NCBI GenBank assembly: GCA_964514655.1
Contig: CAZEQY010000001.1
Location: forward strand, 9,614-73,613
DNA length: 64,000 nucleotides
Direction of reading: 5' to 3'
Source: an uncultured bacterium
Lineage (GTDB): Bacteria; Chlamydiota; Chlamydiia; Chlamydiales; FEN-1388
The notes under the pieces are model-generated. The model made no database searches. It was given only the letters and a program-made list of their open reading frames with translations, and had not been told where the DNA came from. Positions 3,294-46,371 of the stretch are shown here, piece after piece; positions within the stretch are counted from its first letter, which is position 1; each line of letters starts with the position of its first letter. A program made the position numbers and the translations under genes.

Positions 3294-3670
3294 TTCAAAC
3301 CATCGGCGACTATTTTTATAGATACAAAAAAGCAGCTATTGGGGCTGCAAATGTTGCAAGTGCTGCATATCTCATATACACAAACCCCTCTATAACACTC
3401 CGTAGCGGCATACTGTTAAGTGCTCGAGTTCTTTCTCAGTTTGCACTGATTACAGACCACACCCTTGTTAAATGTGCAGCAAGCTTTGCAAATGCTATGA
3501 ACCTCTGCAGCTTGCAGAGCACATCAAGTGCACTTTCTTTAGGAGGATACGTTACCTACAGCTCAACAGCATCTCAAAGCCAACTTGACACCATCCTAAG
3601 TGTCTTCAACATGCTCAATTTTGGCTGGCCAAGCCGCCTTGAGCTTAGCGATGCAGCTACTCTACGCTAA
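3290..3670 (+). CDS. Hypothetical small Ala/Ser-rich protein
   Basis: Its ATG overlaps the permease stop (ATGA), which suggests translational coupling. No motif found, and its 3' end overlaps the convergent gene by 14 nt. Confidence 0.35.
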   Translation: MIQTIGDYFYRYKKAAIGAANVASAAYLIYTNPSITLRSGILLSARVLSQFALITDHTLVKCAASFANAMNLCSLQSTSSALSLGGYVTYSSTASQSQLDTILSVFNMLNFGWPSRLELSDAATLR

Positions 3671-5033
3671 AGTAGGCACTAGTCACAACTTTTCGAGCAT
3701 CGTCGATAAAAAAGCTTGCTCTATAGTTTCCTGGGGCTAGTGGGAAATTTTTTTGGCTTGTGCTGTCAAATTGGTAGGTGCCATCAATTTCAGCCCGTAG
3801 GTAGTGGGCCATGATGGGCTCATCGACATTTGTATCTACCGAAAAAATACCAATCCAATCCCAGTTATGGCCAGGAGCATTGTGCCAAAAAACCGGTATT
3901 GGCTCATTATATACGTATGACGCTTTTGAAAGCTCTAGGATTGGAGCATCATCTTTTGCCTTTGCAACAAAGTGTGCGCTAGCAAGTACATGACCAGATG
4001 ATGAAATAAGCTTGAGCACATGACGCCCCTTATTTTGCACATCAAAGCTTGTGTAGCGAGATAAAGCCCCTACCTTTTGCATACCTATACGCGTATCATT
4101 ATGATAGAGGGCTATCTTTAGTTTATCACTATTTGGCCCTTTAAAATAGACTTTCACAGCTTCTCCGATATCTACAAGGCGCTTTTCGACAGCAATGTAC
4201 ATGGGTGCATTATGTGGCTGCACATGAAAGCTCGAGACAACAACTTTATGATCAGAGGGCCACGGAGAAAATTCTTTTACGCTCACAACCTTGCTCGACA
4301 CTGTCTTTGCAGGGCCGCTTACATAAATAAAGTCGATCCTGTCATGAGGGTCATCATCTTCAGGATTCCAGCCCGGAACCTTTGGCCTAGGAGCCCACCA
4401 GGTATATCCTGGGTGCTTCTTAACGCTTTTGTGAGCCTCTCGATACGAATCTCGAAAGCCCTTTTTTTGCAATGCAAGGCTTACAGGCCACCTAAAGCTT
4501 GAGTCATCAAGCATAGATGGAGTGTTAAAGTCTCCCGATAAAAATACGGGAATATGTTTTTTTACAAGTAGTGGCAGCGCTGCAAGTTGAGGCTTTAAAG
4601 CTGCAAGGCGAACATCTTTTTCCACCTGCTTTACTTCTTGTGCGGGCTCTTTCTCTTCAAGTAGGTATGGACCGTATGGATCACTTGGCAGGTGCACATT
4701 GCTTACTGCAACCACTTTTCCTGGCTCCACTTCTATAAAGGCGTAGATGCCCTTAGTATCTTCTGGATCGATAATAGGAAACTTTGAAAGCACGCGCTGG
4801 CGTATATTGTAGTAGGGCATTCCGGTAAGCGAGGCAATATAGGGAATACGCCCCTCAGACTCCTGTATGCAAACAACATCCGCATCTTCTTTCTGTATGA
4901 TATTGACTACCTGAGAAAGACTTACAAGCGCCCCGCCATCTTCAATATTAAACTGCATGACGCTAAAGTCGCTAGCCGCCCAAAGCCGTGACACAACCCC
5001 AAAAACCAAAAAAATGAATGTGTATATACCCAT
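3657..5033 (-). CDS. Secreted endonuclease/exonuclease/phosphatase (EEP) family phosphoesterase with a C-terminal beta-sandwich-like extension
   Basis: Signal peptide MGIYTFIFLVFGVVSRLWAA. EEP motifs in order: MQFNIEDGG, CIQE, SGDFNTP, DRIDFIY, SDHKVV. About 170 extra C-terminal residues containing NWDWIGIF. Confidence 0.8.
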   Translation of the reverse strand: MGIYTFIFLVFGVVSRLWAASDFSVMQFNIEDGGALVSLSQVVNIIQKEDADVVCIQESEGRIPYIASLTGMPYYNIRQRVLSKFPIIDPEDTKGIYAFIEVEPGKVVAVSNVHLPSDPYGPYLLEEKEPAQEVKQVEKDVRLAALKPQLAALPLLVKKHIPVFLSGDFNTPSMLDDSSFRWPVSLALQKKGFRDSYREAHKSVKKHPGYTWWAPRPKVPGWNPEDDDPHDRIDFIYVSGPAKTVSSKVVSVKEFSPWPSDHKVVVSSFHVQPHNAPMYIAVEKRLVDIGEAVKVYFKGPNSDKLKIALYHNDTRIGMQKVGALSRYTSFDVQNKGRHVLKLISSSGHVLASAHFVAKAKDDAPILELSKASYVYNEPIPVFWHNAPGHNWDWIGIFSVDTNVDEPIMAHYLRAEIDGTYQFDSTSQKNFPLAPGNYRASFFIDDARKVVTSAYFSVE

Positions 5034-5089: not shown

Positions 5090-5515
5090 TTAAGCAAAAG
5101 CAAAATCAATCGAGAAATCTGGAAAAAGGTTCTTTATTTTTGAAATCATATCAAGTGTGGCGTTACACTTCCGTTCTAAACGCTGGTAGCTATAAAGACT
5201 CTTAAAGCCCATTTTTTTAGCTGCTTCTTTCTGGGTAAGCTTTTTCTTCACGCGATGATAGCGCACCATAAATGCAAATGCAATCTCAGGATCTACACCC
5301 ACCTGCACCAAGTTGCTTTTTTTGCTTAACTTAGCGTTGGGAAGTGCGGCAAGATAATTAGATTCCGCAGGCTCTTGAAGATACATGTTCAACGCCTCTT
5401 GCATATTCTCCCACAGCTCTTCTTTGCTATCGCCTTGAGTAAGCAAGCCGTTAAGCTCCACACACTCTGCCCAAAATCCGTTAGCTTCTTTATGAATCTT
5501 AAAATGGTACTTCAT
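5090..5515 (-). CDS. hicB: HicB-family antitoxin with a C-terminal HTH
   Basis: N-terminus MKYHFKIHKEANGFWAECVELNGLLTQGDSKEELWENMQEALNMYL is HicB-like. The C-terminus LTQKEAAKKMGFKSLYSYQRLE is an XRE-like HTH. It lies 2 nt downstream of hicA. Confidence 0.85.
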   Translation of the reverse strand: MKYHFKIHKEANGFWAECVELNGLLTQGDSKEELWENMQEALNMYLQEPAESNYLAALPNAKLSKKSNLVQVGVDPEIAFAFMVRYHRVKKKLTQKEAAKKMGFKSLYSYQRLERKCNATLDMISKIKNLFPDFSIDFAFA

Positions 5516-5517
5516 GC

Positions 5518-5703
5518 TTATTCCGCCTCCAACTGTTTTAAAAGCGCTCTTTCAAGACCCTTTTTTAATTCCTTGTGATCGGGGATAATAATCGTCTTAT
5601 TGCCTTTTCGGAGCTTTCGGTGACTTCCCCTACCCTGGCCTTTAACGATTTCATAACCCCGCATCTCGAAGAGTTTGATCATCTCTCTACCGCTGAGGGG
5701 CAT
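5518..5703 (-). CDS. hicA: HicA mRNA-interferase toxin
   Basis: 61 aa. LSGREMIKLFEMRGYEIVKGQGRGSHRKL matches the HicA/YcfA fold signature (G-S-H). The upstream-toxin, downstream-antitoxin order is typical of hicAB. Confidence 0.85.
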   Translation of the reverse strand: MPLSGREMIKLFEMRGYEIVKGQGRGSHRKLRKGNKTIIIPDHKELKKGLERALLKQLEAE

Positions 5704-6107: not shown

Positions 6108-7442
6108 TTAGGGTTCGCATAAAGCGTCAAGAGCCGCCTCCTTTGACTCTTCTAAATATTCCGGTTCAAGTACTGTAGATGCAATGGTAGAAGTAAAGAG
6201 ATTCACCGCATCAGTCGGCGGCATACTGTTTACCAATTGGATAAAATCTAGATACGGCACTCCAAAAATCGTCTCTTCATTTACGTCAGGAATCGAATAA
6301 CGAACTCCTGGCTGCGGCGCAACTGCTATACGGAAAACTGCTTCATCTACTGTAGGAGATGCAGAGGGGGTATTTCCTGAAGTTATCAATCCCCCCCCAA
6401 GATTTTGGTCTTGTACAATTGACACCAAGGCTGACTCGACTGGCAGGCTATTTTTCTTTAGCGAAGAAGCCTTATAGAATTCATAAAGGCCAATTGAAGA
6501 AGTAATATAAACCGGTTGAACAAGTGAAAATGTTGGACCATAGGTTATAAGTCCACGCGCCTTATTGAGCATCTCGTCACTTTGCAATGAGTCATTCCAC
6601 CTCTCAAGTGCTATGTTTGCCATAGCATACACACTTCCATCACCAGGAAACGATGCATACGCCTCAGCTGAGCTAAATGAAATAACTCGGGTATCGTCTG
6701 AATGGCGCATATAAGGTAGTGCATAATGGACAACTCTTTGAAATCCTGCGACTTTTACATTATAAAGACCAAGGATATCATCTCCAGTAGCTTGCTCTAA
6801 AGGACCATTCCAGTAGATTCCCGGAAGAATCACGAGGATATCAATATGACAGACCTTTTTAACATACTTTTTTATAAACTCTTTCACATCTTTTTCAAAA
6901 CGCACATCCAATTTTTTTAGTGGATATGGCGGCTTCTCATAGCAATCAGGGTATCGGGAAGTAGCTGTTACATGCGCACCCTCTTGATGAAATCGATCAG
7001 CAACAGCCTTTCCAAGACCTCTTGAACCTCCTACGACAAGCACATGTTTGCCAACAACAGATCTTGCATCACTTGTGACTTCGGGGGGATAGGCAAAAGG
7101 CTGGCATGGCTCTAATGGTGGATCAAATGGAGGATCTTGTGTAATCGTAAGAGCAGCAGGATTAACAATTATTGGATACTTGTTTAAATCAAAATTTCGA
7201 AAAGCCTTGCACATTTCCTTATGGCTTTCACAAGTAGTATTTACATTAAAAGTGACAAATCGCTCTTTTTTATTTTCTTCGCAGCAGATGCAATTTTGCA
7301 TTGAAAGATCAAGGACGCCATCTCTACTTGGCTCACGTAGTTTACTACATGTACATGAACTTGAAGCTTCTTTTGCATGTACCTGTGGAGCAAAAAAACA
7401 CAATCCTAAAAGCAGGGAGCTAAACACCTTTCTTGAAAACAT
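6108..7442 (-). CDS. Secreted atypical SDR-fold protein with a Cys-rich N-terminal extension
   Basis: The likely start is the internal Met (MFSRKVFSSLLLGLCFFAPQVHA signal peptide), not 7502. Cys cluster CTCS...CICC...C...C. Rossmann motif VVGGSRGLGKAV. The catalytic position reads YAMAN rather than YxxxK. Confidence 0.7.
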   Translation of the reverse strand: MFSRKVFSSLLLGLCFFAPQVHAKEASSSCTCSKLREPSRDGVLDLSMQNCICCEENKKERFVTFNVNTTCESHKEMCKAFRNFDLNKYPIIVNPAALTITQDPPFDPPLEPCQPFAYPPEVTSDARSVVGKHVLVVGGSRGLGKAVADRFHQEGAHVTATSRYPDCYEKPPYPLKKLDVRFEKDVKEFIKKYVKKVCHIDILVILPGIYWNGPLEQATGDDILGLYNVKVAGFQRVVHYALPYMRHSDDTRVISFSSAEAYASFPGDGSVYAMANIALERWNDSLQSDEMLNKARGLITYGPTFSLVQPVYITSSIGLYEFYKASSLKKNSLPVESALVSIVQDQNLGGGLITSGNTPSASPTVDEAVFRIAVAPQPGVRYSIPDVNEETIFGVPYLDFIQLVNSMPPTDAVNLFTSTIASTVLEPEYLEESKEAALDALCEP

Positions 7443-7531
7443 ACAACCTTCCTTGTAACAATTCGTTTGCTGTATCATAAAAGGTACGAGAAAAGCAAGC
7501 ACATTGACTTTTATGAACCCTTAGAGAACAA

Positions 7532-8332
7532 TTGTCTGTTATGGATCTAGAAGAAGTCTACTCAGCTAAATACTGCCAGCAGCTTGAAGCTGCCTATGGC
7601 AAAAATATGATGTCAGAAGGTGGCACTGAAGCTATAGAGCACCTTTTTGATTCTGTAGAGCTCCGGGGCAAAAAGGCCCTAGACATAGGCTCAGGACTTG
7701 GTGGAGTTGCCTTTTTTATTGCTGAGAAGTATGGCTGCACTGTTGTTGGCCTTGAAATTAACAGCTGGATGGTTGCTGAAGCCACAAAACGCACTCCAAA
7801 ACATCTTAAAGACAAAGTCAGTTTTGTAAAGTGCGACCCCGAATCTAAGTGGCCCTTTGCAGATAGTACTTTTGATACCATCTACAGTAAAGGCGTTCTC
7901 ACCCATGCTGAAGACAAAAATGATATCTTTCAAGAATGCTACCGTCTCCTAAAACCGGACGGCACACTTGTTATAAGCGATGCTTTAAGCTCTGAATCAA
8001 AGGTTTGGGGCGAACATATAAGTCGCCTAAACGAGCTTGAAAGCCTTAATATGTACCCGGAAAGTGAAAGTGGCTATAAGGCTCTTTTGCTAAAACATAA
8101 TTTTATCCTCAAGTCCGTTCGCGATGATCACGCCGAGTGTCACAAATGGACCCTCGATCTTATCAACAGGCTAAAAGATCCAGCCAAGCTAAGCGAACAC
8201 CTTACCTATTTTGACAAGGATGAGCTTGCAGCCCACATTGAGGGCTACGAAGCCATGCTCAAAGCACTTGAAGCAGGCGAGCTGCGATCAGTTCGTTTTA
8301 TTGCAACAAAACTCATGTTGAATAAAACCTAA
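7532..8332 (+). CDS. SAM-dependent methyltransferase resembling eukaryote-type phosphoethanolamine N-methyltransferase (PMT/PEAMT)
   Basis: SAM motif I LDIGSGLGG. YGKNMMSEGGTEA upstream and LLKPDGTLVISD downstream. At 266 aa it appears colinear with my recollection of Plasmodium PMT. The start is TTG 7532 or ATG 7541. Confidence 0.7.
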   Translation: MSVMDLEEVYSAKYCQQLEAAYGKNMMSEGGTEAIEHLFDSVELRGKKALDIGSGLGGVAFFIAEKYGCTVVGLEINSWMVAEATKRTPKHLKDKVSFVKCDPESKWPFADSTFDTIYSKGVLTHAEDKNDIFQECYRLLKPDGTLVISDALSSESKVWGEHISRLNELESLNMYPESESGYKALLLKHNFILKSVRDDHAECHKWTLDLINRLKDPAKLSEHLTYFDKDELAAHIEGYEAMLKALEAGELRSVRFIATKLMLNKT

Positions 8333-10355: not shown

Positions 10356-11342
10356 TTATACCAGTTTGCTGCAAAGCCCCTGATCACCTACCATCCAGAT
10401 AGTATTGTTGCGGGCTTTTATAGCATGATAGTCCTTTAAGCTGCCATCTACTGCTATTGCCTTGTTGTCATGGCCCCAGGCTACACCTGAAAGATATAGA
10501 CCAGAAAGGTTGCTATCTAGCGGCTGCCAAGAGTCGCCTCCATCGCATGTGAATATAGCATTTATGCCTGGTAGATTAGATCGTGTACTTGCTGAACCAC
10601 CTACTGCGACACCCACCCTATCATTAAGAAAGGAGATTGCATGAATGCCTGAATAGGGGTCATTTTTGACTGTAGTAATGGAAGACTCAACTACTTGCCA
10701 TGACAGGCCGCGATCTCGTGAAGAAAAGATGCGCGAGCAGCTTCCTCCTGTACCAAATATGATGCCATCTCGTCCACATACAGCAAGACTAGAGTTACTT
10801 GCAGCAAAACTGTATTCGCCATCTATCGCAGGTATATTGACAACTTGCGGATGCCAGCTAAGACCCTGATCATCTGTTCGGTAGAGTATATGAAAGCCGT
10901 TGACAGGATCGCTAATGGCAACTCCAGAGTGTTCATCCCAAAAGGCAACGCCATCAAAAAAAGTGCCGGCAATATCGACATTCAACACCCTCTGCCACGT
11001 ACTGCCTCCATCAACTGTGCGATAGATACAACCTGAACTTACAACAATAGCCCTTTTGGCATCAAATGCCCAGATGGAGCGAAAGTCAAGCTCCTCTGCC
11101 CCTAAAAGCTGAAAATCTGTCCAGCTAGCACCTCCATTTACCGTGCGAGACACCCGTCCATTTGTACCGCTCACCCAAACCACGCTATCATCTAGAACAA
11201 AAAGGCCGTGAAGATCGGGCTTACCTACTATCTCAAAACTCTCTAAACAATAGTCCTGCGCTCTTGATAGAGGAATAACGCGCGCGCTGTAGCCAGCTTC
11301 TTGAGCTCCTAACGGTGGGGATAAAGGGTCTATAGAATTCAT
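10356..11342 (-). CDS. BNR/Asp-box beta-propeller protein (Ycf48/HCF136-like)
   Basis: Five Asp-box (SxDxGxTW-like) repeats: NGGASWTD, DGGSTWQR, DQGLSWHP, DRGLSWQV and DGGDSWQP. Confidence 0.8.
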   Translation of the reverse strand: MNSIDPLSPPLGAQEAGYSARVIPLSRAQDYCLESFEIVGKPDLHGLFVLDDSVVWVSGTNGRVSRTVNGGASWTDFQLLGAEELDFRSIWAFDAKRAIVVSSGCIYRTVDGGSTWQRVLNVDIAGTFFDGVAFWDEHSGVAISDPVNGFHILYRTDDQGLSWHPQVVNIPAIDGEYSFAASNSSLAVCGRDGIIFGTGGSCSRIFSSRDRGLSWQVVESSITTVKNDPYSGIHAISFLNDRVGVAVGGSASTRSNLPGINAIFTCDGGDSWQPLDSNLSGLYLSGVAWGHDNKAIAVDGSLKDYHAIKARNNTIWMVGDQGLCSKLV

Positions 11343-12199
11343 AAACCTCCTAAGATAGATGCATAGATGTTTCTGACAATAGCTTCAGAGTAGTAGCCTG
11401 AGACCTGGGCTACAAATTTTCTGATGTCTACCGGCAGCTCTTGGTGATTGGCAAAGTCTGAAATGGTACGTATCACTACAAAAGGTATTTCATATTCATG
11501 ACATATTTGTGCAACACTTGCCCCTTCCATTTCTACACAGAGAGCATCCGGAAGGCGCTCTTTGAGCTCGCGCTTATGTTGCTCTTGAGAGACTACCTGA
11601 TCGCCTGTAAGGACAAGGCCCTTTACTACTTTTGGGGTAGTGAGGCGATATTCACTCAAAATAGCCTCCGGAACCACTTTTTGAATTTGGCCTTGCGCAA
11701 ATTTTTGGGCTGCCTGATAGGCAAAAAATTCTAAAGTTGGATCCGGCGTAAGGGCTCTTATACGTAGTAAAGGAAGCTCATACTTTGGGCAAAAAGGCTC
11801 TGCATTAACATCGTGCTGCATAAGCTGATTCCCAATCACTATATCGCCAATGCCAAGCGATTGATCAACCGCTCCTGCAACGCCTGTGAAGAGCACAAGA
11901 TCTACCTTATATTCTGCAATAAGATGGGCAACGCTTGCACTAGAGGCTACCTTTCCAATGCGCGCGGCTACTAGCACGGTATCTATGCCAAAAAGCTTTC
12001 CGCGATAAAACACCCGCTTGCCTCTTTCTTCAGAAATAGGCTCTTGCATACTCTCTACAAGCCTTCCCATCTCACCAGGCACTGCACTAATAAGTCCAAC
12101 AGTTATAGGTTTGCCGCTTACAAAAAGCTCTTTTGCACTTTGTGCAAATAGCGCCTGCAGTGAACATAAGCAGCAAAAGAAAAAAATAAGACACTTCAT
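11339..12199 (-). CDS. mtnN: 5'-methylthioadenosine/S-adenosylhomocysteine nucleosidase (PNP/UDP-1 family) with an N-terminal signal peptide
   Basis: GLISAVPGE...FTGVAGA...VEMEGASVAQICHEYEIPFVVIRTISDFA is the MTAN signature. Signal peptide MKCLIFFFCCLCSLQALFAQ. Its stop overlaps the next gene's start (ATGA). Confidence 0.8.
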   Translation of the reverse strand: MKCLIFFFCCLCSLQALFAQSAKELFVSGKPITVGLISAVPGEMGRLVESMQEPISEERGKRVFYRGKLFGIDTVLVAARIGKVASSASVAHLIAEYKVDLVLFTGVAGAVDQSLGIGDIVIGNQLMQHDVNAEPFCPKYELPLLRIRALTPDPTLEFFAYQAAQKFAQGQIQKVVPEAILSEYRLTTPKVVKGLVLTGDQVVSQEQHKRELKERLPDALCVEMEGASVAQICHEYEIPFVVIRTISDFANHQELPVDIRKFVAQVSGYYSEAIVRNIYASILGGL

Positions 12200-12623: not shown

Positions 12624-14768
12624 ATGAAACTAAAGAACTTTGCATCATTTTTTATAGCTCTCTTTGTTGCAAGCCAGCTTTTTGCGGCAAAAAGCAGCGA
12701 CTCATCAGATGATAGCTGCTGCAAAAAGACAAAAAAATTGGTTAAACAAATTAGCCAGACAACGCAGCAAGATTTGCTTGTTGACGAGACAACGCTTTCT
12801 CTAGTCAACCAGATTAACCAAGTTACAAGAAGCGACCTAGCTGTCGATCTAGAAACGCTAGATATTGTCACACATCTTGTTGACTGCAGCTGCACCTGCA
12901 TCGTCATAAAACCAGAAGATTTTATGGATGATGAGGGCAATCTTACAGTCACATATGCGATTACCGAACCTGGTAACTACTGCCTTGGAGCAAATGTTGC
13001 CTTCTCACCTCAGGATGAATTTACTCCGGCAATCGTTATTCTTACTGACAATGTTCGCCTAGACTTAAGAGGCTTTACGCTCAGCCAGGCAAATGATACT
13101 CCAAACGCCTACGGCGTACAGATTGGAGAAGGGTATAATTACATAGATCCAAACGATGTACTTGATAACATCTCAGTATTCAATGGAACCATTAGGGATT
13201 TCAGTGCAATTGGCGTTTTTTGCTATAACGCAAGCTTTGATGATGAGTCATTTGATCAAGTCGCCTTCCAAGATCTTTCTTTTGCTGATTTGAATATTCT
13301 TGAATGCGGATCATCGCCATCCTTTGATTTTGCGTCAGGAATTGACCTCGACTCTTCAGCAGGACTTGATCCAACAAGTAGAGACCTACCGGTAGCCTAT
13401 AGAAACGTTACGGTCAATAACTGCAACGTAAATAACTGCATCGGCAACGGCGCGTTACAATTCTATACCGTAGATAATCTCGTACTAAAAAATACCCAAG
13501 CAAATAATTTAACAACTGAAGTAGATATCTTCGGCACTTTTGCTCATGCCTATTTTGGAAGAAATATCCAGATGTTTGACTGCCAAGGCAATGGCACAGG
13601 CGATTTTGACCCAAGTCCTTCCCTCTCGCAAGCTGGCGGACTTAGGCTTGAAACATCTGCCAACATCTATGTTGCTAACTGCCAGTTCAACGATACATAT
13701 GGCGAGGCGGGTTTTATCGTACAAGGAGCAAATCTAGGAGAAAACTACAATGCTGTTTATGAGAATTGCCAATTTAACAATACAGTCGGCGGTCCATTAG
13801 TTGCGTTCTTTGTTTCAGGAGCGCACGCTTCTTCAGGGGGAGATACATTTCAGGCAAATGGGCTGAAGTTTATCAATTGCCAATTCAACGGAACACGTAA
13901 TAACACAACGGACGAATCTAGTATTTTTGCTGGACTTATGCAATGCTGTGGATTTCAAACAAGAGTCGATCGAAACTTAACATTTGAAAACTGTCAGGCA
14001 TGTAATATCCAGTCTGATTCACCTCTTGTTACCACGGTGGCCGGATTTGAAATCATAAACTTTAATTTCGACCATGCTCCTGAATTTGGTGATGTTCGCA
14101 ACGTCACATTTTCAAATTGTATAGCAAGCGACATAACCGGTGTACATGAAGCTATAGGTTATGACTTTAGGGCTGCTAATGCCTCTCTTACGGAAGATCA
14201 GTCAGTTATGACAAACATAGTGCTGCAAGATTGTATCATAGAGCGTATCCAAGGCGGCTCAGATAGTGCTATTATTGCCGGCATTTCGGGCGCGCTTCTT
14301 GATACATCATCAATTGCCGACCCGGCCCCTTTTTCACAAAATAATGACTACCTCATTAGAGGCTGTCGCATTTCCGATGTGCATAGTACAAGTGAAGATA
14401 TTAGCCCCTTATCTGCCGGAATACTACTCCAATCGGTTAGTCGGCCGGTGCTGCAGCAAAATAGCGTGAGCGACTGTGACCGGGGTATTTTGTTTACGGG
14501 CATAGATGAAAACCCTCCTGGTTTTAGCGATCTTGGGATGATCCAAGAAAATGAAGTAGATAACTGCCTTATCTCTTGCTACCAAGATGATGCTCCAACG
14601 ACAACAAGTGCCTGGGTAAATAACACGGCATTTAACTGCGGAGAGATGCCATCACAATTTACAAACTACAACATCAACTTTGCAGGAACACGCCCTGTTG
14701 ATGCCGGTACCCTATCTGCCTACCCTGTAGGTGGAAACAAGTACTATAACCTCTCGTTAATTCCCTAA
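12624..14768 (+). CDS. Secreted right-handed parallel beta-helix repeat protein (family member C)
   Basis: AAGGAG RBS. Signal peptide MKLKNFASFFIALFVASQLFA. Cys clusters SCC and CSCTC. The entry block ITEPGNYCL...AIVILTDNVRLDLRGFTLS is colinear with the 28658 and 30328 paralogues. Long N/G/F/C-rich ~25-aa repeats (NCQFN, NCNVNNC). Confidence 0.8.
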   Translation: MKLKNFASFFIALFVASQLFAAKSSDSSDDSCCKKTKKLVKQISQTTQQDLLVDETTLSLVNQINQVTRSDLAVDLETLDIVTHLVDCSCTCIVIKPEDFMDDEGNLTVTYAITEPGNYCLGANVAFSPQDEFTPAIVILTDNVRLDLRGFTLSQANDTPNAYGVQIGEGYNYIDPNDVLDNISVFNGTIRDFSAIGVFCYNASFDDESFDQVAFQDLSFADLNILECGSSPSFDFASGIDLDSSAGLDPTSRDLPVAYRNVTVNNCNVNNCIGNGALQFYTVDNLVLKNTQANNLTTEVDIFGTFAHAYFGRNIQMFDCQGNGTGDFDPSPSLSQAGGLRLETSANIYVANCQFNDTYGEAGFIVQGANLGENYNAVYENCQFNNTVGGPLVAFFVSGAHASSGGDTFQANGLKFINCQFNGTRNNTTDESSIFAGLMQCCGFQTRVDRNLTFENCQACNIQSDSPLVTTVAGFEIINFNFDHAPEFGDVRNVTFSNCIASDITGVHEAIGYDFRAANASLTEDQSVMTNIVLQDCIIERIQGGSDSAIIAGISGALLDTSSIADPAPFSQNNDYLIRGCRISDVHSTSEDISPLSAGILLQSVSRPVLQQNSVSDCDRGILFTGIDENPPGFSDLGMIQENEVDNCLISCYQDDAPTTTSAWVNNTAFNCGEMPSQFTNYNINFAGTRPVDAGTLSAYPVGGNKYYNLSLIP

Positions 14769-28657: not shown

Positions 28658-30313
28658 CTAGCCGCCGTTGTTGATGGAGCAGCAGATATTTGAACCCGCT
28701 ACTGGTAGCATACCAATTGGTTGAGCCTGAATTGAAGGCACATTTTCGCAATCTAAGCCGTTGTTACAAGCAGTGTTAAAATAGACCTCTGTAATGCTTC
28801 CTGAGCCTATTGATATGCCTGTATCATTCGAGTAGACGCTATTGCCTGAAATATGGTTTCCTGCATTATCTTCTACCAAAATGCCATATCTACCTGCACC
28901 CCAGATCTGGTTGCCTATGATGGCGTTTTTACCAGATGTGTTGAGGTGTACGCCAATGTCTTCAGCGTTTATCACGCAATTTTTTATAAGACACCCTTCG
29001 GCATCTGACATATTTACGCCATTGCCAAATGCTGTTAGTTGGCAATTTTCTATACTTACATCGCGGCCACTTTCAATATTTACGGCATCTGTACTAAATC
29101 CACAAAATACCGAATCTCGCACCTGCACATCACTATAGGTGGCACACTCTGCAAGACCTACATGCAATGATGCCGCTGTGTAGTTGTACTGAAATGAAGC
29201 TGGATCACATACCACATTTTCAATAAGGCAGCCTGAGCCATTGACAAGGAATATTCCCTCAAAGTTTACAACTTCAGTGGGATACTTTTTGATGTTTGTA
29301 TTGCGAATGATGATATCATTTGCAGTATTGCCTTCTGCACAATCGCCAAGCTGTATTGCATGAAATGAAGAAAATATGGACGCCTTCATGTTGCAGTGGT
29401 CGATAAGTAGATCATCTACTTTAAGCACATTGACTGTGCAGAACCACTCTGAAAAATTGCAATTTGTAAGCATGATATTTTCAGATTCACCTTCTACGTG
29501 AAAGGCAACGTTTACACGATTTGGATTATAGTCAGTTACAGGAGACTCAAAGTCGCAGCCATCTACGGTAACTCCTATAGAGCCTTGAATCCAAATTCCG
29601 GCACCATCGGCGCTATTAAACGCTACTAATGCAGCAGTTGGCGGAGCAAGATCAGAACTTTCATGGGCCTCTAGATGCGTGTTAAGCACCTTAATATCAG
29701 AAGAGTCCTCAATGAAAATTCCCTTAGTAGTATTTAAGGTATAGAGATTTGATAGCGTTGCTTTTTTCACTCCTGCAAGGTGGATAGCTGCACTTGTTGC
29801 TGTTTTAAAGATGCTTGCACCCTTAATAACGTCATTTTCAAGCGTAAACTCACTCACATTTTCTGCAAGAACGCCCTGGGCCTGGCTATCTGTAAGCGTC
29901 AGGCTGTTGTTATGAAAGTTAATGCTTACATTATCCGCCGTAACGGTAATTGCAGCATCTGATCCATTATAGACTAAATCCTTTATCACACAGTATTTAC
30001 CAGACTTAGAAATAACGATAGGCACATGGTCTATCACCTGTGTCATATCACATGGCAACGATGTATTGACAAACTGAATAACCTCGTTAATTTCCTGTTT
30101 GATGCGATTACAGCAGTGATGAACGTCTGAGTCAATCTCCTTAACATCTCCACAAATATCGCAAGACCTACTGCTAGAAGAGCTTGAGCCATGAGGCTTT
30201 TTGATCTTCGCATGTTTCTTTTTATGCTGCGCAGCCGGTAAAGCTGAAACACTCGCAAATACGCCCGCAAGCAGGGCTAAAAGGGCTATCTTTTTGTAAA
30301 AACTGATCTTCAT
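28658..30313 (-). CDS. Secreted cysteine-capped beta-helix protein (family member A)
   Basis: Signal peptide MKISFYKKIALLALLAGVFASVSA. Basic/Ser linker. CDICGD...HHCCNRI...LPCD module. SGKYCVIKDLVYNGSDAAITVTADNVSINFHNNSLTLTD. C-terminus GSNICCSINNGG. Confidence 0.8.
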   Translation of the reverse strand: MKISFYKKIALLALLAGVFASVSALPAAQHKKKHAKIKKPHGSSSSSSRSCDICGDVKEIDSDVHHCCNRIKQEINEVIQFVNTSLPCDMTQVIDHVPIVISKSGKYCVIKDLVYNGSDAAITVTADNVSINFHNNSLTLTDSQAQGVLAENVSEFTLENDVIKGASIFKTATSAAIHLAGVKKATLSNLYTLNTTKGIFIEDSSDIKVLNTHLEAHESSDLAPPTAALVAFNSADGAGIWIQGSIGVTVDGCDFESPVTDYNPNRVNVAFHVEGESENIMLTNCNFSEWFCTVNVLKVDDLLIDHCNMKASIFSSFHAIQLGDCAEGNTANDIIIRNTNIKKYPTEVVNFEGIFLVNGSGCLIENVVCDPASFQYNYTAASLHVGLAECATYSDVQVRDSVFCGFSTDAVNIESGRDVSIENCQLTAFGNGVNMSDAEGCLIKNCVINAEDIGVHLNTSGKNAIIGNQIWGAGRYGILVEDNAGNHISGNSVYSNDTGISIGSGSITEVYFNTACNNGLDCENVPSIQAQPIGMLPVAGSNICCSINNGG

Positions 30314-30327: not shown

Positions 30328-32178
30328 TTAATCTTCTATTTGACAGCAGATGTTAGAGCCGACAAGCACGATATCTGACGGAACTTGAGGCGTGCTCACA
30401 TTGATGCAGTTGGTATTACTGTTATTGCACGAGGTGTTGTAATAAGTTTCGGTGTTGCCTCCCTGATTATCGATACCAAAGACGCTACCGAAAACTCTAT
30501 TACCTCTAATGTGGTTAGCAGATGAGTTCTCATCAACAAAAATACCATAAACGCTGTTGTTAACAACTTCGCAGTTCACGACAGCATTTACAAAGCTATT
30601 TTGAATATACACACCCGAGCCAGACTCTGAATCTTGCGCATCTGCGATGAGTGAATCTCTAATTTGGCAGCCACCGGCACCACTACCTTCTCCAAAGCCT
30701 AAAATGTAGACGTTTGCGAAATTAGCGCCAAAAAACTCGCTATTTGTAAAGGTGTTGTTAGTGCCATTTTCGATGAAAAGACCAAACGCATTGTCTCCGG
30801 TTACCATGCAATTTGTAGCAAAAATGCTGTCATAGGCTAGTGCTGGAGTACAACCTGAACTATTGGCACATCCTATATGAATGGCTGCCGGTAAATACCC
30901 GTCATCGGTACTTGATGCTGTATGTACGATGACATTTTCTAAGGCAGCGCTACTTCCTTGCGCAAAGAGAAGCCCATCAAATCCCGGAACAGAGTTTTGC
31001 TGACTAAAACTTGAATCTCGTATGATGATGTTGTTTGCAAGCTCATCTTCGGTGTTAAAATCTCCAAACTGACAAAGGCAAAGATTAGAAAAAAATGCTG
31101 CAACAGCCTCCACATGGTCTATAGTAAGGTCTGTAACCTGGCTTGCATAGATCGATATTGGCCAGTCTCTAAAGGTGCTATCCTTCACGACAACGTTTTC
31201 AGAATCGCCAAAGATAAATATGCCATTTGAAGCTGTATTGGGGTCTTCGCCTATTGCAGCACCTTCAAATGTAGTTGCATCGACCCAAACGCCAATTGAA
31301 TTTTCCACCCAAACGCCAGCTCCTTGCGAAGTTACGCTATCGCCAAAAGAGCCTTCGTGATAGCGCACAAGGGCACCTACCACTTTGACATCCGTAGAAT
31401 CTATAATCTGTATACCCTTGGTAGTGTTGTAGGTGTAGATATTTTCAAGTGTTGCCTTCTGTACGTTTGTAAGCTTAACAGCTACACTTGTTGTTGTATG
31501 AAATAGCTGCTCGCCTTGGATAACGTCATTTAGCAGTGTAAATTCTGAAACATCCGTCACAACAACGCCTTGAGCATTTTGATCTGTTAAGGTGAGGCTA
31601 TGGTTATGAAAATTAAGCGTCACATTATCACTTGCTACTGTAATAGCAGCGCCGGAGCCTACATACCTAAGATCCTTTGTCACGCAGTACTTACCAGGCT
31701 GTCTGATTGTATATGGCACTGTGCTGATGGCTATTGGTGCATCGCAAGGAAACTCTGCCTGCAGTAGCTCTAAAAGCTGCCATAAAAGAGCATCTATCTC
31801 TTTGCAGCACTTTGAAACATCAGATTCCAAGTCATTAAGCTCTCTACAACCGTCACAACCAGAAGAGTTTTCATACATCTTCTTTGCTTGCATCTTTAAC
31901 TTATTTACTTTGAGCCATCTGGTAAGAGCCTGGACTTTACCCAGCGTCTGCTCGACCATCTCTTGATTGTCACTATTTTTTGCTAAAACTACAGCTTTGG
32001 CGTACTGGAGGACTTCATTTACCTCCCTACTCAATTTTTTATCTTGGATTCTCTTGGCTAGGCTTTCAAGCTTTGGCAGCGTGCCTTCAAGAGTCCTTAT
32101 GGTGTTGTCAGCAGCATGTAGAGGTGCTGTCAGTGCAAAAACTCCTAAGAGCCATGCAACAAAATACTGGTTCTTCAT
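30328..32178 (-). CDS. Secreted cysteine-capped beta-helix protein (family member B, with an N-terminal helical extension)
   Basis: Signal peptide MKNQYFVAWLLGVFALTAPLHA. About 90 aa of heptad-like helix. CDGCRE...SKCCKEI...FPCD. PGKYCVTKDLRYVGSGAAITVASDNVTLNFHNHSLTLTD. C-terminus GSNICCQIED. It lies 14 bp upstream of member A. Confidence 0.8.
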   Translation of the reverse strand: MKNQYFVAWLLGVFALTAPLHAADNTIRTLEGTLPKLESLAKRIQDKKLSREVNEVLQYAKAVVLAKNSDNQEMVEQTLGKVQALTRWLKVNKLKMQAKKMYENSSGCDGCRELNDLESDVSKCCKEIDALLWQLLELLQAEFPCDAPIAISTVPYTIRQPGKYCVTKDLRYVGSGAAITVASDNVTLNFHNHSLTLTDQNAQGVVVTDVSEFTLLNDVIQGEQLFHTTTSVAVKLTNVQKATLENIYTYNTTKGIQIIDSTDVKVVGALVRYHEGSFGDSVTSQGAGVWVENSIGVWVDATTFEGAAIGEDPNTASNGIFIFGDSENVVVKDSTFRDWPISIYASQVTDLTIDHVEAVAAFFSNLCLCQFGDFNTEDELANNIIIRDSSFSQQNSVPGFDGLLFAQGSSAALENVIVHTASSTDDGYLPAAIHIGCANSSGCTPALAYDSIFATNCMVTGDNAFGLFIENGTNNTFTNSEFFGANFANVYILGFGEGSGAGGCQIRDSLIADAQDSESGSGVYIQNSFVNAVVNCEVVNNSVYGIFVDENSSANHIRGNRVFGSVFGIDNQGGNTETYYNTSCNNSNTNCINVSTPQVPSDIVLVGSNICCQIED

Positions 32179-32237: not shown

Positions 32238-33986
32238 CTATAGGATTTGAAAATCGCGAATGAGAAGCTGGATACTCGAGCCATTTACTTGGGGAGTAAA
32301 AGCAACCCGTAGTGGTAGAGGCTTCTTTTGTAGAAAGGGCAAGCGAAAAGCCTGTCCAACCGCGAGGCCTTCTAGCATGCGGTCTTCTTGTTCTAGATAC
32401 ATCTTGAGATGCTGCTTGCCGATAATTTTTGGTTCGGCAATCTGCTGGCAGTCGGCATAGAGCATAGGCGGAGGGTTACCATGGCCGTAGGGCTCTAAAA
32501 GCTTTAAGGACTCCATAAGGTCAAAGGTAAGATCATCAAAACGTACATGGGCATCAAGCTGCAGCTTTGGGGTGATGTGCTGCTCGTGCAGCTTTTCATT
32601 TGCAATGGCGATAAAGCGCTCAGTAAATTCTTCGATACAGCTTTCACGTATTGTAAGACCAGCTGCAGAGTCATGCCCACCAAAGTTTAATAAAAGATCA
32701 GATAGATCCTTTAACACGCCAAGAACAGGAAATTCAGGAATAGAACGAACAGAGCCCTTTCCTACCTGGCCATCTAAGGCAATCATGACTGTAGGTCTAT
32801 TGTACTGTTTGGAGATGCGCATTGCTAAGATGGCGATGATGCCGGGGTGCCATTTGCGAGAGGTCATGACAATAGCGCGATTTGTAAGTATTTCAGGATG
32901 CGCCTCTAGGGTTTTTTCCACGTCCTTTGTCATCTGGCGCTCTATCTTTTGTCGCTCTATGTTATAGAGGTTAAGCTCGATGGCAAGTTTTTCAGCAGCA
33001 AGAGCCTGCTTTGCTAAGAGAAGCTTAACGCCTTGCTCAGGCTCAGCTATACGGCCAAGGCTATTTAAACGAGGCGCTATCTTTGAAGCAATGATAGACG
33101 TTGTGCTATCTAATACATCCGTCTCACATATAGATAAAAGCTTTGCAAGGCCTATTCGCTTTGTCTTTCGTAGCTGCTCAAGCCCATAAGAAACTAAGAT
33201 GCGATTTTCTCCGAGCAAAAGGCCCATGTCAGAGACTGTGCCAATGGCAACAAGGTCTAAGTAGCGTTTAAGGTCCACTTTTTTAGCAGGAAGCATGCCT
33301 TCATCTACTAGATGTTCAGTAAGCGCACAGGCAAGCTTAAAGGCAACGCCAACACCAGTAAGCTCTCTATTTGGATACTCTGAACTTACAAGCTTTGGAT
33401 TGAGCGTAGCTACGCAAAGTGGAATTTTATTAGTAGGCTCATGATGGTCTGTGATGATAACGTCTATTTTATGACGAACTACTTCTTCAATCTGCTCTGC
33501 CGCTGTAATGCCGCAGTCTACTGTAATGAGAAGCGTGCAGTGAGTTTTGAGGGCATATTCAAGTGCGTCGAGGATCATACTCTGACGAAGAAGCTGCGTC
33601 CTATTCGAGATATAGTGAAATACCTTAGCGCCAACGAATGAAAGAAACTCTGCTAAAAGCGCAGTCCCCGTCATGCCGTCAACATCGTTATCTCCATAAA
33701 CTAAAATGTTTTCTTCATTCTGAATTGCCTGCATGATGCGCTGCATAGCTTGAGGCATCTCAGCAAAAAGAAAGGGATCAAGAAGATCGGGTAGCTTGCC
33801 ATAGAGGTAGTAGTGGATATCGTCAGTAGAAGTAATGCCCCGAGAGACAAGAACCTGTGCAAGCACAGGATGCAGGTGAAATTCCTGCATAATTTTTTGT
33901 AGTCGATCAGGGTCCTTCTTTGGGTCTACCCAAAGAAGGTCCTTAGTTTTTGTTAGAAATCCGGTTACCTGTATGTTGTCATTCAC
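32238..33986 (-). CDS. recJ: Single-stranded-DNA-specific exonuclease RecJ
   Basis: DHH-family motifs VYGDNDVDGMTG, DCGITA, ITDHH and GGHDSAAG. Confidence 0.9.
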   Translation of the reverse strand: MNDNIQVTGFLTKTKDLLWVDPKKDPDRLQKIMQEFHLHPVLAQVLVSRGITSTDDIHYYLYGKLPDLLDPFLFAEMPQAMQRIMQAIQNEENILVYGDNDVDGMTGTALLAEFLSFVGAKVFHYISNRTQLLRQSMILDALEYALKTHCTLLITVDCGITAAEQIEEVVRHKIDVIITDHHEPTNKIPLCVATLNPKLVSSEYPNRELTGVGVAFKLACALTEHLVDEGMLPAKKVDLKRYLDLVAIGTVSDMGLLLGENRILVSYGLEQLRKTKRIGLAKLLSICETDVLDSTTSIIASKIAPRLNSLGRIAEPEQGVKLLLAKQALAAEKLAIELNLYNIERQKIERQMTKDVEKTLEAHPEILTNRAIVMTSRKWHPGIIAILAMRISKQYNRPTVMIALDGQVGKGSVRSIPEFPVLGVLKDLSDLLLNFGGHDSAAGLTIRESCIEEFTERFIAIANEKLHEQHITPKLQLDAHVRFDDLTFDLMESLKLLEPYGHGNPPPMLYADCQQIAEPKIIGKQHLKMYLEQEDRMLEGLAVGQAFRLPFLQKKPLPLRVAFTPQVNGSSIQLLIRDFQIL

Positions 33987-36900
33987 TATGACATACTTGG
34001 TTGTAATTTCTTCCTTGTATCGCGCGTTTCAAGGAACAGAAGAATCGGCGCTGCAATAAAGAGCGACGAGAGTGTTCCCAAGAATACGCCAACCGCCATT
34101 ACAAACGAGAAGGCAAACATCGATTTACCGCCCAAGAAGACAAGGGTAAGTAGCACTAACAGTGTGATACCGGATGTCATCAAGGTTCTAGAAAGCGTTG
34201 TATTTAGAGCGTGATTAATGATTTCTCTAAAGCTCTTCTTGCGCATGAGACGCATATCTTCACGCACACGGTCAAAGACGATGATGGTATCATTTAGCGA
34301 GTAGCCAATAATCGTCATAAGCGCGCCTATGACCTCAAGGTCAATTTGCACCGGAAGTCCCATCTTATTGGCAATAGCTGCCACGCATACTGTCAAGATA
34401 ACGTCGTGGACAAGGCCAAGTACCGCCGCACATGCAAACTTCCACTCAAAGCGGAAGGCGATGTAGACAAGTACCGCAACAAGTGCAAGGCCAAGGGCCC
34501 ATATTGCGTTATTGCGCATTGCATCAGAAAACTGACCGCTCATTTGCGTCCAGCCTGTTGCTAAGCTTTGAAGCTGAGATTGCTTTACCTTAAGACCTGT
34601 AGATTCTACAGCTTTTACAAGCCATACAATGCGAGGATTTTTCTGAAAGTCGTATGAAAACTGATCTTTATCAGAAGAAAGCTCTACCGGCATCCCATGG
34701 AAAGGTTTGCCAGCTTGATCAACGCTAATGCCAAGCTGAATTCTCAAGTAGTTTGGTCTGCCAAGCTCACGAATTTGAAACTCTTTGCTTGATAAGCCTT
34801 GCTTAAGAAGTGCATGTGACACACGCTCGCGATAGTCAACAGATTTGCCGGAGGTTGTCTTTGCTTCTTGTAGATCAACAACAAGTGAGTAGCCTCCCGT
34901 AAAGTCCATACCAAAGATAGACTTATACTGCATGCTCATGACGCCAACACCAACTGCAAGCACAATACCTGTGATGATAAAGGCTGGCTTTGTATACTTT
35001 AAGAAGTCAAAGTTTGTGGCTTTGATCCACTCTGACATTTTGAGCTCTGTGTGCTCTGGATTTTGTACCCAGCCGGCAAAGAAGTAGCGTGTCATAAAGA
35101 GCACCGTAAACATCGATGCTACGATACCAATTACGAGCGTTACAGCAAAGCCGCGGATAGGGCCTGAGTCAAACTGAAGCAGAATAAGCGATGCAATGAT
35201 CGTAGTAAGGTTAGAGTCTAAGATCGCGCTAAATGCTTTTTTGTAGCCAAGGTGAATAGCAGATGCAATTCTTCCTGAGATCTTAAATTCTTCGCGAATA
35301 CGCTCAAAGACTAAGACGTTAGCATCAACTGCCATAGCAACAGTAAGGAGCATACCTGCAATACCCGGCAAGGTAAGTGCCATCTCGATGTTCTGCATAA
35401 CAGCCCAAATGATAAGCATGTTAAAGAGAACAGCAACACTTGCAACAACACCGGCAAAGCGGTAGTAGCCGATCATACAAGCTGCCACTAAGCAAATAGC
35501 AACGATAGATGCCATGATACCAGCATAACGTTCTTGTTTTCCAAGCTCTGGGCTTACGTTTTGCTCAGACAAAATTTTTGGTGTAAAGGAAAGTGATCCT
35601 GCCTTTAGGTCTGTAGCGAGCTTACTTACTTCACGCTGGGTAAAGTTACCGCTGATCATAGCATGATCGCGTAAAGAGGCATTAAGCGTTGGGTATGAAA
35701 TTACCTGACCGTTCAGGATTACTGCCATGCGCCAGCCATTGCCAGGAGCAAAGGCTTCTTTTGGAGTTCCAACAATTGCTTCTTCAGAAAACTGTGATGT
35801 CCAGTTATAAAAGTCATCTTGTGGACTTTGTGAACCATGAGCACGTCCTGAAGAATAGGAATTCTTTACGCTAAAGAGCAATACGTTACCTTTTGAGGGG
35901 TCGTAGTTTGTCTGGATATTTTCAAGACTTGAACCATCTAGGGCATAGTTTGCAAAGGTGATCATCAATGGATGGCCTCTAAAGTGCCAATCAGCCGGCT
36001 CATCGCCGCGCTCTCGAGCTATCATCGACAATGAATCATCAAAGGTGCAAGCTGGAACAAATTCTGCAGGGTTTGCTAAGCGAAGGCCTGCATCGTAGAG
36101 AATTTGCGCACTATCCTTAATGCCTGTGTTGCCAGAAGAACGAGCAGCAGCTGTCTGCAGCTTGTTATAAGCTATCTGGTTAATCTGATCTGCATCTTTT
36201 TGGTTTGTAACGACAGCTTCGTTCCAGATATCTTGTAAAAACTCATTTACATCTTTTGCAAGACTTGAGTTTGCCGGGCCATACTGCTCGTTCACTATAT
36301 AGAAGTACATAGCAGACGCTTTGATAAGCTCTGCAGCAGATAAGCCTTGAGCACCGGGGAAGTCAATTACAATCGTAGAGTTTTCAATACGGATCGTACG
36401 TTCTGATACGCCCATTTTGTTAATTCTCTGGTAGAGTTCATTAACAGCTTGGTGAAGCTCAGCGGGATCTGTAACCGGCTTATTTGCCTGATCAAGAAGT
36501 GCAATTCTAACGCTTTTACCGCCAGAAAGGTCTAAGCCCCAGCGAATAATCTTGCTATCATCGCCACGGAAGTAGGCGCTACATGCACGTTTAAAGTTTG
36601 CAAAGTAGGCATTTTCTATTGGAGATGGCACTGTAAAACGCGCAGACTTATCAAGGCTTACTTGAGCTGCTTGATAGGTTTCTTTTGCACGAAGTACATC
36701 TTCTTGAATAGCATCGTTAATACGATTTTCTGTGATGATACGCTGCTCAACGTCAGAAAACTCTAAAGTAGCAAACTCTCGGCTACCAAGCACCACAAAA
36801 TCTTCGCGTGAAGCTTTGAGTAGTGTTGAATAGTAGTCATCAAGTTCAAATACAAAGTCACGTGCAAATTCAGAGGTGTTGCCAAGAGCTTGGCCTGAAT

Positions 36901-45569: not shown

Positions 45570-45630
45570 CACTTGTGAAAAAAGCCATTCACAGGTAAAT
45601 TATTTGTTATTTATTGATTTAGAGGTACAA

Positions 45631-46371
45631 ATGACTAAAATGTCTTTATCAGCTGCCTTACGCAGTCAGCTAAAAGATTACCTAGAAGCGACAAAACATC
45701 CAGAGCTCATCACCACTTACCTATACTATGTTGAGCATAAATTTTCTCTTGAGCCAGTGCTTTTTGTCCGCGATAAGCTCGTCTATCAAAGCACAAGCGA
45801 CGCCGTTAGACTCCTTGAAAATGAAGGCAAACTCTGGCGCGAAACAGAAATTAAGATTGGCTACGTCACTTCTAGCGTCGACGAAAATACAAAGAAAATC
45901 TATATATGCCCCTTCACCGGTAAGGTCTTTGGCGACAACACGCACCCAAATCCACAAGATGCCATCTACGACTGGGTGTCAAAATGCCCGGAAAATACCG
46001 AACGCGTTGGCGGCCTTCGCGTAAAGCGCTTTTTCATCTCAGAAGACCCAGAGGTGATCAAAGCCTATGCAAGCAAGTTCACACCAAAAACGCCAATAAC
46101 AAAAATCGTCTTCTCTTCAGCAATTAACGGCAAGCTCTACCACTCAAAAGAAGCTGTTATCGAAGACTTTAAGGAAAACTACCTAAAACGAGTAAGCCTC
46201 GTGGAAGTCCAAAGCCAAAGCCGTTTCCAGATCGAAGAGCACTTCATGGAATTTATCCAGAAGCAGCTTGCCGAAGACAAGATTGCATCCTTTGTAGAGA
46301 TGATGTCTGAAGTCGAAGAGTTCGGCCCCTACGTCGAAAGCTGGCTTGGCGAGGTAGAACAGGAAACGTAA
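45631..46371 (+). CDS. Hypothetical cytoplasmic protein; first gene of the tsaE-engB-exonuclease cluster
   Basis: ATG 45631 is preceded by AGAGG. No known motif. Contains YICPFTGKVF...VSKCPE and an acidic C-terminus. Confidence 0.55.
   Translation: MTKMSLSAALRSQLKDYLEATKHPELITTYLYYVEHKFSLEPVLFVRDKLVYQSTSDAVRLLENEGKLWRETEIKIGYVTSSVDENTKKIYICPFTGKVFGDNTHPNPQDAIYDWVSKCPENTERVGGLRVKRFFISEDPEVIKAYASKFTPKTPITKIVFSSAINGKLYHSKEAVIEDFKENYLKRVSLVEVQSQSRFQIEEHFMEFIQKQLAEDKIASFVEMMSEVEEFGPYVESWLGEVEQET

Follow-up and report, generated by a model that had tools for sequence, protein, structure and literature searches.

A methyltransferase with the phosphoethanolamine N-methyltransferase fold in a Chlamydiales genome, and an uncharacterised bacterial family whose substrate pocket appears to be rebuilt

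Phosphoethanolamine N-methyltransferase (PMT, also PEAMT) is ascribed to plants, nematodes and apicomplexans, and it is treated as a drug target because hosts lack it. The locus described here raises the question of whether such an enzyme is also encoded by a chlamydia-like bacterium. It lies in a window of 64,000 nucleotides, the whole stretch of DNA that was analysed (positions 9,614 to 73,613 of contig CAZEQY010000001.1, assembly GCA_964514655.1, from an uncultured member of the Chlamydiales), and the preliminary description of one of its genes had spoken of a eukaryote-type PMT-like product. The best explanation is that the gene encodes a cytoplasmic, small-molecule methyltransferase of a family related to the eukaryotic PMTs as their sister or paralogue. 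More precisely, the product is probably (with a probability of roughly 0.6) a PMT-fold methyltransferase dependent on S-adenosylmethionine (SAM), which belongs to an uncharacterised bacterial family and would N-methylate a non-phosphorylated substrate by means of a Tyr/His pair.

The list of open reading frames (ORFs) of the window gives this gene as a frame of 266 aa with a TTG start at 7532..8332 (+). There is an in-frame ATG three codons downstream, at 7541, and because the 263-aa product that begins there is 100% identical to a protein in the public collections (P0001), this ATG is taken as the likely start; the gene itself is real. Residue numbers throughout are those of the 266-aa frame.

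The closest family that is both characterised and structurally solved, over the full length as well as in fold, is PMT/PEAMT (EC 2.1.1.103), whose members include the Plasmodium enzymes PfPMT, PvPMT and PkPMT, the MT2 domain of Arabidopsis PMT1/2, and the C-domain of nematode PMT-2, all colinear full-length homologues of the query. When the single sequence was searched with phmmer against all PDB chain sequences, the top 11 matches were without exception PMT/PEAMT entries. These include PfPMT (3uj6, chain 3uj6_A of 266 aa, E 5e-26, query 15-166 aligned to PfPMT 24-175), its D128A mutant (4r6w, E 3e-26), Arabidopsis PMT1/2 (E 3e-24), the P. vivax and P. knowlesi PMTs (E about 1e-22), and nematode PMT-2 (E 1e-13 to 1e-16), and the first non-PMT match is a putative sarcosine/dimethylglycine methyltransferase (SDMT; E 5e-13). 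A family alignment of the query and 39 diverse homologues (A1) was used for a profile search of the PDB, in which residues 16-265 of PfPMT (E 1.4e-41) and 245-491 of the Arabidopsis MT2 domain (E about 1e-46) were aligned, with RebM as the best non-PMT match (E 5.5e-21). Likewise, hhalign joined A1 to an alignment of seven canonical PMTs over 247 columns with a probability of 100% (E 7e-55). The likeness to PMTs is far above chance, and this homology implies an ancient shared origin of the PMTs and the bacterial family.

The fold agrees with the profiles. An AlphaFold2 model built on A1 (mean pLDDT 95.4, pTM 0.92) was compared with the PDB by Foldseek, which ranked the Plasmodium PMTs first (TM-score 0.84-0.88, root mean square deviation 2.3-2.9 Å over 252-264 columns; in the case of PfPMT, 0.85-0.88 and 2.3 Å over 253-263 columns); the nematode PMT-2 C-domain (0.85-0.87) and AtPMT1 (0.82) also scored highly, so that the PMTs as a whole cover 0.82-0.88. 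Since the full-length profile alignment, the hhalign result and the fold match all extend into the lid, the query shares the whole PMT architecture of N-terminal helix, Rossmann core and helical lid. The single-domain Plasmodium PMTs are equal to it in size, and its identity to PfPMT is about 30% when the alignment is based on structure or profile; in a trimmed alignment, its identity to the canonical PMTs is 24-31%. Several statements of the preliminary description are thereby borne out, namely the colinearity of the 266-aa product with PfPMT, itself a chain of 266 aa, the similar C-terminal lid (on which profile, hhalign and Foldseek agree), and the two quoted PfPMT sequence matches, which were reproduced in the phmmer alignment.

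Domain databases are less specific. Pfam gives only generic methyltransferase domains (Methyltransf_11/31/25 and a partial CMAS), and the scores of the NCBIfam models for the query all stay well short of their cutoffs. Several more familiar identities were tried and set aside: SDMT (NF041675, 51.9 bits vs 550), cyclopropane fatty acid (CFA) synthase (43-45 bits vs cutoffs of 400-650), UbiE/MenG (TIGR01934, 54.2 bits vs 158; UbiE models, 37-45 bits vs 216-378), ArsM and BioC (cutoffs not reached), and CMAS (PF02353), of which the match is partial (39.9 bits, query 8-155 against profile positions 29-171 of 273). PmtA, too, is a class I SAM-dependent N-methyltransferase like the query, but only its Rossmann core matches (8ys9, E 6e-10, residues 48-147) and it has no PMT-type lid. 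PmtA and Pcs are the usual bacterial routes to phosphatidylcholine, Pcs being an unrelated membrane enzyme.

Whether a PMT fold also means a PMT activity depends on the active site. In PMTs, the Tyr/His pair faces the methyl group of SAM. The catalytic dyad of PfPMT is Tyr19/His132, and its phosphobase site is lined by Tyr19, Tyr27, Tyr160, Tyr175, and Tyr181, with electrostatic contacts from Arg179 and Lys247 (PMC6705855). In PvPMT, the phosphate is hydrogen-bonded to Y24, Y157, Y178, and R176, which are Y27, Y160, Y181, and R179 of PfPMT (PMC4357015). Asp128 of PfPMT is known from the crystallised D128A mutant (4r6w). It was reportedly proposed as a catalytic base by Saen-Oon et al. in 2014.

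For the comparison, PfPMT 16-265 and AtPMT1 245-491 were rebuilt from printed alignments, their numbering was checked, and both were aligned by MAFFT with the query and 267 homologues. The catalytic dyad is kept, as the preliminary description had stated: Y19 and H132 align with Y10 and H125 of the query in all four alignments. The SAM positions I36/S37, D61, G63, D85 and D110 of PfPMT are represented by M27/S28, D51, G53, E75 (a conservative change) and D102; the query family and the PMTs alike conserve S37, D61 and G63, and at position 85, 82% of the family have Glu where the PMTs have Asp. The query and the PMTs also have in common E28, D122, S126, K138, D159, and Y189 (PfPMT numbering). 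The substrate side is different, with Y27 replaced by L18, D128 by G121, Y160 by A151 (Trp in the family), Y175 by L166, R179 by E170 (a charge reversal), K247 by M242 (Ile in the family), and Y181 by L172 according to HMMER and hhalign or M174 according to MAFFT. The three methods agree at every mapped position except this last one, where they are two residues apart. By these alignments, the SAM-binding residues and the Tyr/His dyad are retained, and the phosphate-binding half of the site is gone.

The replacements are not peculiar to this gene. Across the 270 aligned sequences, the canonical signature YYDHYYRYK at the nine positions is limited to PfPMT, AtPMT1, and a few proteins of ~400-550 aa, mostly di-domain. 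About 150 sequences, here called group A, carry Y-L-G-H-W-[LM]-[ED]-[LMI]-I. The query and its closest relatives read Y-L-G-H-A-L-E-M-M, which matches the wider group A pocket signature Y-L-G-H-[WACF]-[LM]-[ED]-[LMI]-[IM], and the query motif VYSAKYCQQLEAAYGKNMMSEGG likewise matches the N-terminal family motif EYxxxYCxxLEAAYGxxMMSEGG; its identity to the Chlamydiota homologues is 51-81%. In a column contrast of 153 group A sequences with seven canonical PMTs, Y27 is Leu in 97%, D128 is Gly in 100% of the 153, Y160 is Trp in 84%, R179 is Glu in 93%, Y181 is Leu in 72%, and K247 is Ile in 83%. The query, like at least 80% of the same 153, conserves the SAM-motif residues and the Y19/H132 pair. 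Group A has in addition conserved residues of its own, which are Y14 (97%), C15 (91%), Y22 (97%), and E29 (95%), the last lying two residues past the backbone position that binds the SAM carboxylate. The only new conserved basic residue is K47, directly before strand beta-1 and outside the lid; no new conserved Arg or Lys was found in the lid of the 153 sequences. Judging by this conservation, the replaced phosphate site is a property of the family and not the decay of a single gene, and because the replacements are so strongly conserved, a functional enzyme with a different pocket can be argued for.

These findings bear directly on the possibility that the protein is a genuine PMT that makes phosphocholine and binds the phosphate unlike the plant, nematode and apicomplexan enzymes. 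PMTs are its best match by sequence and fold, the dyad and the SAM site are conserved, the length and colinearity are those of PfPMT, and JGI calls some of the homologues PMT. Nevertheless, this possibility is decidedly unlikely: all six phosphate/phosphobase ligands and Asp128 are replaced, R179 is turned into Glu in 93% of the family with no compensating conserved Arg or Lys in the lid, the family falls outside the canonical PMT clade in 100/100 bootstraps, and no gene of the CCT, LicC, CPT, LicD, or Pcs type was found among the scanned ORFs of the window or as a conserved neighbour. In other words, the query has the fold, the SAM residues and Tyr19/His132 of a PMT, and has neither Asp128, nor the phosphate clamp, nor a place in the clade. 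The preliminary description had itself considered that the gene might encode a generic methyltransferase such as UbiE or SDMT, with the PMT substrate residues not conserved. These residues (Y27, D128, Y160, Y175, R179, Y181, K247) are indeed all replaced, but the best matches are PMTs and not the generic enzymes.

A second uncharacterised PMT-like set, group B, came to light in the same alignment (about 30 cluster representatives, e.g. P0187, P0195, P0209, P0212), with the signature Y-[LIV]-E-H-W-[FM]-D-x-Q. It shares with the query family a PMT fold deduced from homology, a Trp in place of Y160, an acid (Asp) in place of R179, and the Tyr/His pair; it differs from the query in having Glu, not Gly, for D128 and Gln for K247, and its identity to the query is 24-32%. 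No NCBIfam model reaches its cutoff for group B. Some homologues of the query (P0009/P0010, P0020, P0231) are fused to an N-terminal DUF952, a C-terminal Cupin_2, or a C-terminal EutQ-like Cupin_3. Fusions of this type might be Rosetta-stone hints to the substrate; an assignment from them was dropped, as they are too rare and uninformative.

The phylogeny separates the family from the PMTs. In a neighbour-joining tree of 213 sequences (no pair at or above 75% identity, 254 columns, 100 bootstraps), the canonical PMT clade stands apart from all group A sequences, and from groups A and B together, in 100/100 bootstraps. The identity of the query within group A is 27-74%, as against 24-32% with group B and 24-31% with the canonical PMTs. 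Groups A and B are poorly separable (2/100), and the exact bipartition of the whole query-type group has a support of 14%. Hence only the separation from the canonical PMTs is robust, and no claim is made on the relation of A to B. Apart from the clade, the query family differs from the PMTs in being bacterial, in having no di-domain forms, and in that a CDP-choline pathway context was not found among the scanned ORFs of the window or in the 80 related loci.

The distribution points the same way. A scan of bacterial and archaeal genomes, with one genome per GTDB species, gave 437 relatives, and the names that follow refer to the best 80 of these 437. They include the Chlamydiota (Rhabdochlamydiaceae, Simkaniaceae, Parachlamydiales, 'Ca. 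Sacchlamyda'), Dependentiae/Babeliales, Legionellales and Coxiellaceae, as well as Piscirickettsia, Fangia, Cysteiniphilum, Facilibium, Caedibacter, several Alphaproteobacteria, one Vibrio, and two Methanobacterium metagenome-assembled genomes (MAGs). The two closest are a MAG with the label Verrucomicrobia (74%) and a MAG from the Chlamydiales (71%). When a collection of 5.8 billion proteins was searched twice, the matches that carried an organism name were all bacterial, and when 1.84 billion representatives were searched exhaustively with HMMER, 62 clusters fell below 1e-30, the plant-like di-domain PMTs appearing first at ~1e-23 to 1e-25. The family thus recurs mainly in intracellular bacteria associated with protists or hosts, and the label eukaryote-type does not hold. 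A literature search gave nothing relevant on a bacterial or chlamydial PMT-like enzyme. Outside this pattern are the members in the Methanobacteriota MAGs (loci L046 and L048) and in the free-living Vibrio sinus (L025), at 36-43% identity; horizontal transfer or binning contamination could account for them.

The distribution also has a bearing on whether the enzyme could be an N-methyltransferase of the glycine/sarcosine/dimethylglycine type that makes a betaine osmolyte. The Galdieria SDMT (2o57) is the first non-PMT structural neighbour of the query (TM-score 0.74), and the SDMT model NF041675 does score 51.9 bits. This is far under its cutoff of 550, however, the binding of a carboxylate would need a basic residue, of which none is conserved in the lid, and the family is concentrated in intracellular bacteria and not in halophiles, so that a betaine-forming role is highly improbable.

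What the retained and the replaced residues suggest together is a transfer of the methyl group from SAM to a nucleophile, most likely the nitrogen of an amine, that is held between Y10 and H125. The distal part of the pocket would be rebuilt, the Tyr/Arg/Lys clamp giving way to a hydrophobic and aromatic lining (L18, W/A151, L166, L172, I/M242) with a conserved acid, E170; Asp128 is lost, and a new conserved acid, E29, would lie beside the SAM-carboxylate loop. With such a lining and an acid at the Arg position, we infer a substrate without a phosphate whose distal end is neutral or cationic. It is probably not phosphoethanolamine or another phosphobase; candidates include free amino alcohols, diamines or polyamines, and lipophilic amines.

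The same lining admits another reading, in which a carbon, oxygen or sulfur atom of a lipophilic non-amine substrate (lipid, isoprenoid, quinone, or natural product) is methylated and the likeness to PMTs would reflect the shared ancestry of the lid only. Hydrophobic residues fill most of the pocket positions (L, W, L, L, I), the partial CMAS match lies above its Pfam cutoff (39.9 bits vs 27, residues 8-155), and the structural neighbours next to the PMTs, besides SDMT, are TleD, geranyl diphosphate (GPP) C-methyltransferase, RebM, AtmM, and MitM. Among them, TleD, RebM, AtmM, and MitM, as also 2o57, share a class I Rossmann core and a related lid with the query, but their profile scores are weaker and their N-terminal helix and lid less similar. 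These neighbours have TM-scores of 0.71-0.81 vs 0.85-0.88 for PMTs and E-values of at least 5e-21 vs 1e-41, and the NCBIfam scores for UbiE, MenG, UbiG, CFA synthase, and Mtf2 are all far under their cutoffs. The motif GAFEH of CmaA1 aligns with GVLTH of the query, and we take its Glu to be replaced by Thr124, which is also counted against this reading. As the Tyr/His pair typical of N-methylating PMTs is kept, and the conserved acids E29 and E170 fit an amine or cation better than a hydrocarbon, a lipophilic non-amine substrate is rather doubtful.

N-methylation of a phosphate-free substrate is hence preferred, though several points weigh against it. The view of the pocket is drawn from alignment to solved PMTs, with the proximity of the residues deduced, and a conserved Tyr/His pair is no proof of N-methylation. 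The equivalent of Y181 varies with the method, both candidates being hydrophobic. Other ways of binding a phosphobase are conceivable, for instance by backbone amides or a metal. In addition, IMG/JGI names several members of the family 'phosphoethanolamine N-methyltransferase'; such names are taken as similarity-based.

A bolder form of the preferred reading holds that the family is a new enzyme class on the PMT scaffold, which N-methylates a phosphate-free amine (free ethanolamine to choline, or a diamine or polyamine) and has spread horizontally among protist-associated intracellular bacteria, with Chlamydiota, Dependentiae, Legionellales, Coxiellaceae, and Piscirickettsiaceae being named, as a trait of host adaptation. 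This is unlikely as it stands. If true, choline made from free ethanolamine would supply the bacterial Pcs route, which depends on choline, or change the pools of the host.

The genomic surroundings neither support nor suggest a pathway. ORFs of 80 related loci, with flanks of at most 8 kb on either side, and of the window were clustered by all-against-all BLASTP, and no neighbour was common beyond close relatives in these 80 loci; those that were repeated are generic short-chain dehydrogenases (SDRs), ABC transporters, sensor kinases, and one Cysteiniphilum-specific block. Choline/ethanolamine kinase, cytidylyltransferase (CCT/LicC), choline phosphotransferase (CPT), LicD and Pcs are all absent from the Pfam-scanned ORFs of the 64-kb window, and no phosphocholine-pathway gene is a conserved neighbour in the 80 loci, which leaves the suggestion of bacterial phosphocholine or phosphatidylcholine synthesis without backing. 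Similarly, the composition of the gene (GC content 0.41-0.43 vs 0.38-0.48 in the flanks) lends no support to the gene exchange with eukaryotes that had been proposed, and shows no sign of a recent horizontal transfer, which was rejected on this ground. The gene stands alone and is native to the genome.

Upstream, the methyltransferase gene is divergent from a Cys-rich SDR-like gene (6108..7502, -), as noted in the preliminary description; the pairing is not kept in the related loci. The SDR-like protein has a signal peptide, a Cys-rich extension of ~130 aa, and then a short-chain dehydrogenase domain (residues ~150-310), and its probable true start is the Met before the signal peptide, at ~7442. 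The plus strand of the intergenic region holds two sigma-70-like hexamer pairs (7433-7462 and 7504-7532), which are consensus matches only, with no evidence of function. Downstream, at a distance of 38 bp, is a gene for a secreted protein of 387 aa without a Pfam match. The coordinates of the gene, its parts, and the marker features of the window are collected in Table 1.

Table 1. Positions in the window of the methyltransferase gene, its functional parts and other features.
Feature	Position	Strand	Basis
Coding sequence (likely start at ATG), PMT-like class I SAM-dependent methyltransferase	7541..8332	+	ORF; identity to P0001; Pfam Methyltransf_11/31/25; AlphaFold2
Divergent intergenic region between methyltransferase and SDR-like gene (short)	7443..7540	.	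Position
Codon of Tyr10 (PfPMT Tyr19 of the catalytic pair; family-conserved)	7559..7561	+	Alignments
SAM-binding motif I LDIGSGLGG, residues 50-58 (D51, G53 = PfPMT D61, G63)	7679..7705	+	Alignments
G121-V-L-T-H125 (conserved H125 = PfPMT His132; G121 at the PfPMT Asp128 position)	7892..7906	+	Alignments; family conservation
C-terminal alpha-helical lid, residues 151-260 (phosphate clamp region in PMTs)	7982..8311	+	HMMER profile; MAFFT; hhalign; family conservation
Codon of E170 (PfPMT R179 position)	8039-8041	+	Alignments
TLC ATP/ADP translocases, three, full-length	38676-40253 (-), 51081-52607 (+), 52669-54267 (+)		Pfam E 1e-175 to 1e-188
DUF2709	45604-46371		Pfam
Fused SecD-SecF, single ORF of 1520 aa with very long N-terminal/periplasmic part	33986-38548	-	
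Right-handed beta-helix proteins, three (two also match NosD)	12624-14768 (+), 28658-30313 (-), 30328-32178 (-)		

The rest of the window bears out an origin from a chlamydia-like obligate intracellular bacterium, for which the three TLC translocases, DUF2709, the fused SecDF and the beta-helix proteins speak. TLC ATP/ADP transporters are a hallmark of obligate intracellular energy parasitism, and the three found here are all located in a 16-kb span, with a tandem pair among them. DUF2709 is presumably a chlamydia-specific family, and the beta-helix proteins are possibly adhesin-like or Pmp-like surface proteins. An ankyrin-repeat protein is also encoded. Other genes are worth recording in their own right. 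A PNP_UDP_1 protein (11339-12199, -), resembling methylthioadenosine/S-adenosylhomocysteine (MTA/SAH) nucleosidase, has an N-terminus, MKCLIFFFCCLCSLQALFAQ, that looks like a signal peptide by eye; such nucleosidases normally recycle the SAH made by methyltransferases, and a signal peptide would mean an unusual location. A secreted protein of the endonuclease/exonuclease/phosphatase family (3657-5033, -; Pfam E 5e-16) has a C-terminal extension of ~190 aa without a Pfam match; sphingomyelinases and inositol phosphatases are among the enzymes with this fold. Two small neighbouring ORFs, one of 61 aa and one of 141 aa (5090-5703, -), resemble by eye a HicA-like toxin and a HicB-like antitoxin, the latter with a C-terminal helix-turn-helix; the 141-aa ORF has no Pfam match at E<=1e-5.

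P0001 has so far been annotated generically, as a 'methyltransferase domain-containing protein'. What is added here is a PMT scaffold with a systematically rebuilt pocket, as read from the alignments, widespread in host-associated bacteria; it is a well-delimited uncharacterised enzyme family and not a surprising biological system. The PMT label given to some of its members by pipelines such as IMG is probably wrong. As the PMT fold and the Tyr/His pair are kept in a pocket that appears to be consistently rebuilt without its phosphate site, bacterial phosphocholine synthesis is not safely inferred from the presence of the family. Finding the true substrate would establish a new activity for a scaffold that is well studied, and it might explain why the gene is retained in the very reduced genomes of intracellular bacteria, Dependentiae and Chlamydiota among them.

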